Origin: an uncultured Acidobacteriota bacterium
GTDB lineage: Bacteria > Acidobacteriota > UBA6911 > RPQK01 > JAPXNP01
Length of the DNA: 64,000 nucleotides
Direction: 5' to 3'
NCBI GenBank assembly: GCA_963723965.1
Contig: CAVRSV010000012.1
Location: forward strand, 547,544 to 611,543
This document shows positions 15,102 through 15,276 of the stretch, one piece after another (positions within the stretch are counted from its first letter, which is position 1; each line of letters starts with the position of its first letter). The translations under genes were made by a program, and so were the position numbers. The notes under the pieces were generated by a model, which had not been told where the DNA came from, did no database searches, and saw only the letters and a list, made by a program, of their open reading frames with translations.

Positions 15102-15276
15102 GAGATTTGAGATTTGAGATTTGAGATCTACGATTTACGATTTGGTGACGGGCTTCCGCGGGCCTGCTATTGCCGTGCGGGACCGGCGTGACGCGTTATG
15201 CCGGACTGACCCGCTCGCCAATACCAGCGGAGACCGCCACCAAATCGTAAATCTCAAATCTCAAATCTCAAATCCC
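15102..15276. repeat. Inverted arrays of GATTTGA heptamer repeats (about 45 bp arms) around a 90-bp GC-rich spacer, upstream of the gap operon
   Basis: The left arm is gagatttgagatttgagatttgagatctacgatttacgatttggtg (15102-15147). The right arm is caccaaatcgtaaatctcaaatctcaaatctcaaatccc (15238-15276). The arms are near-perfect reverse complements. The AT-rich 7-mers are unusual in this GC-rich context. Confidence 0.7.

Follow-up and report, generated by a model that had tools for sequence, protein, structure and literature searches.

A heptanucleotide-repeat quasi-palindrome between an acyltransferase gene and the gap operon of an uncultured Acidobacteriota bacterium

INTRODUCTION

What is a pair of inverted, AT-rich heptamer arrays doing just upstream of a glycolytic operon in a GC-rich genome? 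The question is raised by a 64,000-nt stretch of contig CAVRSV010000012.1, from an uncultured member of the Acidobacteriota (the whole stretch analysed is hereafter called the window), in which arrays of the unit GATTTGA face each other between a gene for a lipid A biosynthesis (lysophospholipid) acyltransferase and gap, the first gene of a gap-pgk-tpiA-secG cluster. A first-pass annotation of this DNA proposed that the arrays are multimeric transcription-factor sites, perhaps a CggR-type glycolytic operator, or else a structured insertion like a miniature inverted-repeat transposable element (MITE) or a REP sequence. We favor another reading, at a probability of roughly 0.6: the element is a lineage-specific, fast-evolving heptanucleotide-repeat quasi-palindrome that belongs to the class of intergenic heptameric repeats, and is not a promoter or operator of gap.

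RESULTS

A quasi-palindrome of heptamers that begins in a stop codon

The whole element occupies positions 15102-15274, a 173-bp quasi-palindrome with AT-rich heptamer arrays at its ends and a GC-rich middle. The arm at 15102-15147 (46 nt, 35% GC) reads, as written, GAGATTT three times, GAGATCT once, ACGATTT twice and then GGTG. The arm at 15238-15274 (37 nt, 32% GC), read on the minus strand, consists of three GATTTGA units, one GATTTAC, one GATTTGG and a final TG. On that strand the first arm is the reverse complement of the second plus one extra unit, GTAGATC; conversely, the second equals the reverse complement of the first minus one unit. Direct reading and a repeat search thus agree with the annotated inverted GATTTGA arms, one of them longer by a unit. 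The sequence assigned to a "left arm" is also right, but the genes run on the minus strand and 15102-15147 is therefore the gap-proximal arm, 15238-15274 being the gene-proximal one.

In the repeat search the inverted arms were recovered as 44 nt at 89% complementarity and 36 nt at 94%, the longest inverted repeats anywhere in the window. A tandem-repeat search (TRF) returned period 7 for both arms, with 3.7 copies at 15102-15127 (100% match) and 4.9 copies at 15241-15274 (88%). The 14-mer GATTTGAGATTTGA, allowing up to two mismatches, occurs five times in the window where 0.29 occurrences are expected, and all five lie within the element.

Between the arms lies a core (15148-15237) of exactly 90 nt and 70% GC, in a window with 63% GC overall. 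Its length and composition are as first described; it is not, however, a separate enclosed unit. In the predicted fold the core forms the inner part of the palindrome, whose center is ACGCGT (15191-15196). The minus-strand RNA folds at -105.3 kcal/mol, compared to -56.4 +/- 4.1 for shuffled sequences (z = -12.0; 0 of 200 shuffles match it), with a stem of about 44 bp, and the DNA fold of the element (-66.9 kcal/mol, z = -12.8) is similarly extreme. The very long hairpin anticipated for this region is thus corroborated.

The acyltransferase gene, like gap, pgk and tpiA, is encoded on the minus strand. This gene (15268-16200; Pfam PF03279, E = 2.4e-56), for which we use the start of a database protein of 310 aa, ends in TAC GGG ATT TGA (...YGI-stop), with the TGA at 15270-15268. 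The first heptamer of the gene-proximal arm, GATTTGA, is therefore a G followed by the isoleucine codon and the stop codon of the gene. Its distance from the upstream ORF is thus 0 nt, as the array begins within the stop codon; at the other end, 155 nt separate it from the gap ATG.

The predicted gap promoter lies beyond the element

gap (13939-14946, minus strand) encodes a type I glyceraldehyde-3-phosphate dehydrogenase (Pfam PF00044 and PF02800). Its predicted promoter (15051-15079, minus strand) consists of a -35 hexamer TTGTTC (15079-15074), preceded by AAAA, a 17-nt spacer and a -10 hexamer TAGAAT (15056-15051). A promoter consensus scan had passed over this sequence, which matches 8 of the 12 hexamer positions where at least 9 were required. 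The element is separated from TTGTTC by 22 nt (15080-15101), so that the promoter lies 23 bp beyond the element's end and outside it. Given the minus-strand gene order and this 23-bp gap, the element is the 3' flank of the upstream gene, placed upstream of the gap promoter. The first-pass annotation was correct in putting it between the end of the acyltransferase gene and the start of gap, though not in putting it where the glycolytic promoter is.

The leader of gap, or 5' untranslated region (UTR) (14947-15044, minus strand; about 105 nt), ends at a GGAGGAG ribosome-binding site. For five lineages, some with the element and some without it, we aligned the 155 nt that precede the gap ATG. Mean column identity is 85%, and both hexamers and the spacer length are invariant. 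In the predicted fold of the leader there is a stem of TCGGCTKCT with AGGWAAGCCGA; covariation across the five lineages was not convincing, and the leader had no Rfam match. If gap is regulated in cis, this conserved leader is a likelier site than the element.

Could the arrays nevertheless be cooperative protein-binding sites, either a CggR-type operator or heptad iterons of the omega type, that control the gap operon? In the CggR paradigm of Bacillus subtilis, direct repeats CGGGACN6TGTC lie at the gapA promoter and cggR heads the operon. No repeats of that type occur in 14947-15300, the gene upstream of gap is the acyltransferase gene with no regulator gene adjoining gap, and the element is upstream of the -35 hexamer. 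AT-rich arrays stand out in a GC-rich genome, and contiguous 7-bp repeats, direct and inverted, beside a promoter are the layout of the omega/ParB sites of plasmid pSM19035, in which each of 7-10 contiguous heptads WATCACW, in direct and inverted orientation, is bound by one dimer (PMC9499535). Read in one register, the unit here is AATCTCA, which matches AATCACA at 6 of 7 positions. Yet the omega arrays overlap promoters, are conserved, and reside on Firmicutes plasmids with the gene for the cognate protein alongside (PMC9499535), whereas the arrays here are not conserved, are 90 bp apart, and lie upstream of the promoter, at about -58 to -230 relative to the predicted gap start; this comparison was made with no search for a ribbon-helix-helix gene.

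Conservation tells against such sites as well. The promoter is conserved in all five lineages, while the element is absent or replaced in some that keep it, and therefore the operator reading, and with it the notion of AT-rich iterons as transcription-factor sites, is not supported. The first-pass annotation had itself held that an operator would be called into question if no other copy of the element existed and if relatives with a conserved gap promoter lacked it; the latter is what we find. Moreover, as detailed below, unit number and sequence vary between contigs that encode one and the same acyltransferase protein, equivalent arrays with unrelated units stand between convergent genes and beside unrelated genes, and the metagenome matches to the GATTTGA array span contigs of 31-66% GC from many unrelated organisms. 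Control of gap by proteins bound to the arrays thus appears very unlikely.

Empty and replaced sites in related genomes

The acyltransferase is 100% identical to P0001, a protein from uncultured Acidobacteriota metagenome-assembled genomes. Loci with the identical acyltransferase were available from three other assemblies (L001-L003), along with contigs covering the gap side (L028 and L154). A JGI contig, L155, is 94.7% identical over 1.5 kb (window 15108-16619). Lineages with a gap protein about 92% identical are represented by L004/L005/L031/L033, by L007 and by L029/L030; the L156 lineage has an acyltransferase 74% identical, and L008-L023 are more distant Acidobacteriota. In most of the Acidobacteriota loci compared, the acyltransferase gene and gap remain adjacent. 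One distant locus, L009, has a metallophosphoesterase-like open reading frame (ORF), so labeled from its sequence, and a 440-aa ORF between the two.

Upstream of the conserved promoter block the lineages differ completely. The L029/L030 site is empty: a single unit, GGGATTTGA, is followed by only 17 nt, and GGGATTTGA is the same gene end that is found at the gene-proximal arm in the window. L007 is likewise empty, with GGGATTTAG followed by 46 unrelated nt. Both empty sites keep one native heptamer at the stop codon, GATTTGA or GATTTAG. At other sites the element is replaced. In L004/L005/L031/L033, relic units GATTTGC GATTCGG precede an element of about 450 bp with heptamer arms of GGGAGAC/CTCCCGT, and in L156 arrays of the GAAGCTC and GTTCAGA types lie between GGGATTTGAGG and TCCAAATCC.

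Neither the arms nor the core had a second copy in the window, in 33 related loci (about 490 kb) or among the 120 JGI matches listed in the metagenome scan described below. Of the source genome, 64 kb (the window) were analysed, so for that genome the statement holds for this stretch and not genome-wide. Since the empty sites carry a single native heptamer and no second copy was found, the array appears to have grown in place from the gene end.

These observations bear directly on the possibility that a non-autonomous mobile element of the MITE or REPIN kind, with heptamer arrays as terminal inverted repeats, inserted between the acyltransferase gene and gap. The arms do resemble terminal inverted repeats, presence or absence of the element differs between species, contigs break at it, and a short GC hairpin motif, GCRGCCTCTGGCCGC, recurs beside heptamer arrays at three loci. 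Against a mobile element stand the lack of a second copy in the sequences searched and the identity of the outermost unit, the Ile-stop heptamer of the gene itself, which the empty sites have too. Comparing filled with empty sites, the latter belonging to other species, we saw no target-site duplication; no two heptamer hairpins of the window are built from one unit sequence; and there is no transposase among 26 window proteins scanned. That part of the MITE/REP proposal which sees an insertion relative to the relatives stands. The likeness to MITE or REP families does not, and a mobile origin is in our view quite unlikely.

Unit number and core orientation among close relatives

Between the window and L001 there is no difference in the 56 nt upstream of the element or in the 133 nt downstream, and their arms are one heptamer and one single-nucleotide polymorphism apart. 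In the distal (gap-side) arm the window has one GTAAATC, one GTAGATC and three TCAAATC units, compared to GTAAATC/TCAAATC counts of 2/3 in L001, 1/3 in L028 and 4/2 in L154; the unit count of this arm differs in L155 too. Although L001 and L028 are overlapping contigs of a single assembly, their numbers of GTAAATC are unequal. L002 and L003 diverge after GATTTGAGATTTGAG, where both contigs end, 41-48 nt past the stop codon. L001 stops 90 nt past the distal arm, overlapping L028. These three breaks, in independent short-read assemblies, fit an inverted repeat combined with population heterogeneity.

The cores are far less alike than the flanks, with matches in 69 of 101 alignment columns between the window and L001 and two short islands, CCGGCATAACGCG and CCCGCACGGCAATA, common to both. 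Taken with the very stable fold, such islands could point to a structured small RNA, or else a cis-regulatory one, encoded by the element. The fold of the window core is not kept in L001, though; core sequence is otherwise not conserved, and the islands are explained by the palindrome together with inversion of the core (see below). The element is also absent from relatives. Rfam at gathering score identified only a tRNA-Leu in the whole window, and a search of 14900-15400 at E values up to 10 returned nothing credible. A functional RNA of this kind is extremely unlikely.

The core of L155 is the reverse complement of that of L001. Global alignment scores 60.5 with one core inverted and -1.5 directly, and 77 of 101 columns are identical in the inverted alignment, the differences being mostly two indels. 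The two orientations come from different samples. Because the inner arms share only 12-16 nt, this orientation should be resolvable by the k-mers used in assembly. For the window core against L001 the two scores are alike (32.5 direct, 37.5 inverted) because the window core is itself palindromic, and orientation is thus settled for L155 versus L001 only. The window core is better described as a mosaic. Of its 90 positions, 88 agree with the L001 core read either directly or inverted (shuffles, 75 +/- 3): 51 agree both ways, 19 in the inverted reading only and 18 in the direct reading only. One segment of 25-30 nt is present on both strands. In L155 (1343-2209), past the distal arm, a convergent phosphoesterase-like gene stands in place of gap; this junction is either a rearrangement with its breakpoint at the element or a chimeric contig.

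Opposite core orientations are what one would look for in an inverton-like phase-variation switch, in which the heptamer arms recombine, the 90-bp core flips, and its orientation or the unit number alters expression of gap or of an RNA started in the arms. In invertons (fimS, hin and the Bacteroides polysaccharide promoters, for example) the inverted repeats are short and specific, a dedicated recombinase recognises them, and a promoter is carried along. The element resembles them in having a short segment beside a gene, bounded by inverted repeats, whose orientation differs between related genomes. The mosaic window core would also accord with flipping. So would the three assemblies that break in or just past the element, a hairpin motif found at opposite element ends in L002 and L004, and the closeness of the element's end, 23 bp, to the gap -35 hexamer. 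Furthermore, each arm holds a sigma-70-like TTGAGA-N16-TACGAT facing the core (15244-15271, minus strand; 15107-15141, plus strand), with three such sites found versus 0.1 in shuffles. By our count, a spacing of 16 nt takes three or more GATTTGA units, a number reached in the window but not in the proximal arm of L001.

Other observations are harder to reconcile with a switch. The arms are degenerate simple repeats, the consensus scan found no promoter-like site within the core, and no recombinase or invertase is among the 26 window proteins scanned, although one could lie outside the window. The two orientations come from different samples or lineages, and close relatives keep the promoter without the element. 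Homologous recombination or template switching can, moreover, passively invert a segment that lies between inverted repeats of 37-46 bp. An active invertible switch, while the most interesting alternative, is therefore one that we regard as unlikely.

Heptamer arrays elsewhere

We applied one rule to every period (a minimum of 3 copies and of 85% match) and estimated the background by Markov simulations. The window contains 8 period-7 arrays versus 0.43 expected, whereas counts for periods 4-6, 8 and 10-12 stay close to expectation; period 9 alone shows a further slight excess (2 versus 0). Across the loci covered by this count there were 42 period-7 arrays, compared to 4-6 for each of periods 6, 8 and 9. 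The search of the 64-kb window for further GATTTGA arrays yielded no second copy, but it did yield heptamer arrays of other units. The unit differs from one window locus to the next (GAGATTT, GTTCCTG, GGGTTTC, GGGAGCT, CCTTCGC and CTCCCGT), and GATTTGA has no run of G residues, whereas some other window arrays (e.g. GGGAGAC, GGGTTTC) are G-rich.

A second inverted heptamer element lies at 38210-38361, with (nnGTTCC) x5, a GC-rich core of about 70 nt and an inverted array, its arms extended by TTTTCGGGG/CCCGAAAA. It is flanked by convergent genes, one for a peptidase S9 (35459-38200, plus strand) and one NifB/X-like (38390-38902, minus strand). The fold (-118.1 kcal/mol, z = -6.2) consists of 5-bp helices with a 2x2 internal loop every 7 nt.

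Between dapA and a comEA-like helix-hairpin-helix gene, which share the minus strand, an 820-nt spacer (54890-55712) is packed with arrays, including CCTTCGC x10 (55334-55400) and CTCCCGT x4.7 (55576-55608), as well as GGAGAACGGGAGG blocks at 55411-55431 and 55485-55504. We considered a third hairpin here (55470-55625, around 55485-55608); the arms pair, but the fold is no better than that of shuffles (z = -0.48), and the candidate was dropped.

Single arrays are found in a divergent promoter region (17922-17946) and, with GGGAGCT/GGAAGCT units, at the 3' end of a radical SAM gene (19268-19298). At the same gene end L004 has 9 CCCAGCT copies (6422-6485) and L005 has 13 (6415-6506), which represents copy-number polymorphism since these two loci have the same acyltransferase and gap proteins. 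The genes beside the window arrays share no common function, and no obvious regulator was found among the 26 window proteins scanned.

Period-7 arrays also occur in L004, L005, L008, L009 and L019; some relatives have none. L009 has 13 heptamer arrays in 21 kb, mostly TGACCAA/TGACCAG, and TGACCAA is the reverse complement of TTGGTCA, the STRR2 unit of cyanobacteria.

Several smaller repeats were seen along the way. A short GC hairpin motif, GAGYGCRGCCTCTGGCCGCG, adjoins heptamer arrays at three loci (window 17906-17946, L002 4130-4146 and L004 11336-11350). It stands at the gene-proximal end of the gap-upstream element in L002 and, in opposite orientation, at the gap-proximal end in L004/L005/L031/L033, and it may be a small dispersed repeat tied to heptamer arrays. 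A 9-mer, CTGTCCTAT, occurs five times at 57062-57111, upstream of a redoxin/AhpC-family gene, and an 8-mer, CTCCCGTT, five times at 1860-1902, between convergent genes. In L004 (8160-8450), tandem repeats with a unit of roughly 40-50 nt, in which CCCCGATTCGCGAGATA returns every ~40-50 nt, take up the divergent region upstream of a 4HBT thioesterase gene, without a counterpart in the window. Among the remaining neighbors of the element, an EgtD-like methyltransferase gene (16227-17252, minus strand; identified with Pfam) lies beyond the acyltransferase gene, and the tRNA-Leu gene (11445-11532) follows the gap cluster.

We also scanned JGI metagenomes for GATTTGAGATTTGAGATTT. At least 120 contigs matched, with 31-66% GC and from many unrelated organisms; this locus is not among the matches listed. 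About 7 of the 120 listed have an inverted partner within 500 nt. Because the matches span so many unrelated organisms, the GATTTGAGATTTGAGATTT array is a common microsatellite rather than a family marker. On one unrelated soil contig (L094), a GATTTGA array starts at the TGA of a gene that reads as proC-like and encloses a core of ~150 nt. On a further contig (L087), which we take to be cyanobacterial, heptamer hairpins of the GATTTGA type directly follow stop codons in what appears to be a single cluster of ribosomal-protein-like genes. If the flanking genes there are co-transcribed, such hairpins need not terminate transcription.

DISCUSSION

How might the element have arisen?

Several features of the sequences compared here carry our reading. 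The array starts from the gene's own terminal heptamer, which is single-copy in related genomes. Unit number shifts in 7-nt steps between contigs with one acyltransferase protein. The two arms remain mirror images, the order of variant units included. As for the core, two close relatives have it in opposite directions, and in the window both are mixed into a mosaic. The element is not conserved beside a conserved promoter, and heptamer arrays with other units occupy further intergenic regions of the window. We suggest that replication slippage makes the arrays grow and shrink, and that the complementarity of the arms is kept by intrastrand template switching or by recombination between the inverted arms. 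The same template switching or recombination could also flip or symmetrise the core.

Consequences at the RNA level can be envisioned as well. Transcribed as the 3' UTR of the acyltransferase mRNA, the hairpin (about -105 kcal/mol) could impede read-through. It could also block 3' exonucleases, and so protect the upstream mRNA end, or be cut by RNase III. It would then set the upstream transcript apart from the gap operon, whose own promoter is 23 bp away.

A number of points weigh against this account. Slippage alone leaves the mirrored arms unexplained, and template switching is proposed to fill that gap. Every comparison sequence is a metagenome assembly, and inverted repeats can confuse assemblers; in this regard, the mosaic core of the window could be a real symmetrised palindrome or the consensus of a population of mixed orientation. 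The L007 empty site has no significant structure, which implies that the hairpin is not under obvious selection. A terminator scan of the element gave 0 sites, and on neither strand does a U-tract follow the stem; as an intrinsic terminator, the element has the right position, just past a stop codon, and lacks the U-tract. The RNA-level role, which is purely inferred, we regard as incidental and not conserved, because the L007 site is unstructured and there is no U-tract after the hairpin. To these may be added the AT-rich character of this array, in contrast to the G-rich Xanthomonas repeats taken up below. An ancestral terminator that was later elaborated was considered separately and stays weak, as the L029 empty site forms a small hairpin (z = -2.3) but L007 forms none.

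What does the locus mean for annotation and for the study of simple repeats?

A practical consequence is that annotators should not label this AT-rich repeat block a glycolytic operator; the predicted gap promoter and a conserved leader lie just beyond it. More generally, the locus offers an unusually clear view of how a heptameric repeat evolves, with a single native heptamer, in-place expansion, mirror arms, unit changes and core inversion all represented. The many natural alleles make it a good test case, although the locus alone does not reveal a new system. It is conceivable that inverted heptamer arrays act as self-renewing recombination arms, which time and again flip and symmetrise the core and so leave strain-variable, possibly phase-variable structures immediately before a housekeeping promoter; the number of units and the orientation of the core would then tune read-through out of the upstream operon or fire the promoter-like motifs in the arms. 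We give this idea only a small chance. If true, it would provide both a function and a mechanism for the long-unexplained excess of heptamers in bacteria.

Which known repeats does the element resemble?

The REP sequences of E. coli are intergenic palindromes located after stop codons or between convergent genes, and as 3'-UTR hairpins they can stabilise upstream mRNA. REPINs are inverted doublets that form long hairpins (PMC3116915). The element has the intergenic palindromic layout of REP, BIME and REPIN sequences, which often lie after stop codons or between convergent genes. It differs in that REP/REPIN families comprise tens to hundreds of near-identical copies and are accompanied by a RAYT transposase, whereas here each hairpin is unique and built of tandem heptamers.

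Tandem heptamers are the hallmark of two other groups. The STRR families of heterocystous cyanobacteria are defined by fixed units. STRR heptamers and TAACTGA repeats (PMC4679880) share with the arrays described here an intergenic location, several units per genome and overlap with the end of the upstream ORF. The TAACTGA repeats, known from Beggiatoaceae, cyanobacteria and Bacteroidetes (MacGregor 2015, PMC4679880), differ in being mostly direct arrays just upstream of start codons, for which a role in translation has been proposed (PMC4679880). Neither group has been described as flanking an invertible core.

The GGGAATC repeats of Xanthomonas and GGGGAYT repeats of Nostoc come closer. Rehm et al. 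(2015; PMC4692102) described 186 GGGAATC-type heptamer sites in Xanthomonas campestris, of which 70 are convergent pairs. Most are intergenic (89%), with a mean distance of 28 nt to the upstream ORF and 160 nt to the downstream ORF. Genes of every class are found next to them, their length changes from species to species, and no function was found for them (PMC4692102). According to Mrazek et al. (2007), as related in two later papers (PMC4679880, PMC4692102), no other long simple repeats are as abundant as heptamers in most prokaryotic genomes; the cause proposed is slippage of a polymerase whose footprint is 7 nt.

The correspondence extends to most of what defines this class. There are a few tandem 7-nt units, mostly intergenic, with period 7 over-represented; the arrays are similarly near the end of the upstream ORF (28 versus 160 nt in the published set; 0 versus 155 here); two arrays are often convergent and able to form a stem-loop or cruciform; the neighbors are housekeeping genes, without preference for a class; and at a given locus close relatives differ in length and sequence. 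What is missing is the G-rich unit GGGANTN, a property specific to the published Xanthomonas and Nostoc sets and not to heptameric repeats generally. The repeats of those sets share one G-rich, G-quadruplex-capable motif per genome, while here the unit is AT-rich and changes between loci. Unlike them, too, the element has between its arms a GC-rich, palindromic core of 90 bp whose sequence and orientation are not the same in all relatives, and the host is an uncultured member of the Acidobacteriota. The closest match to the element is thus the known but functionally unexplained group of intergenic heptameric simple-sequence repeats, of which it is a new, acidobacterial member.

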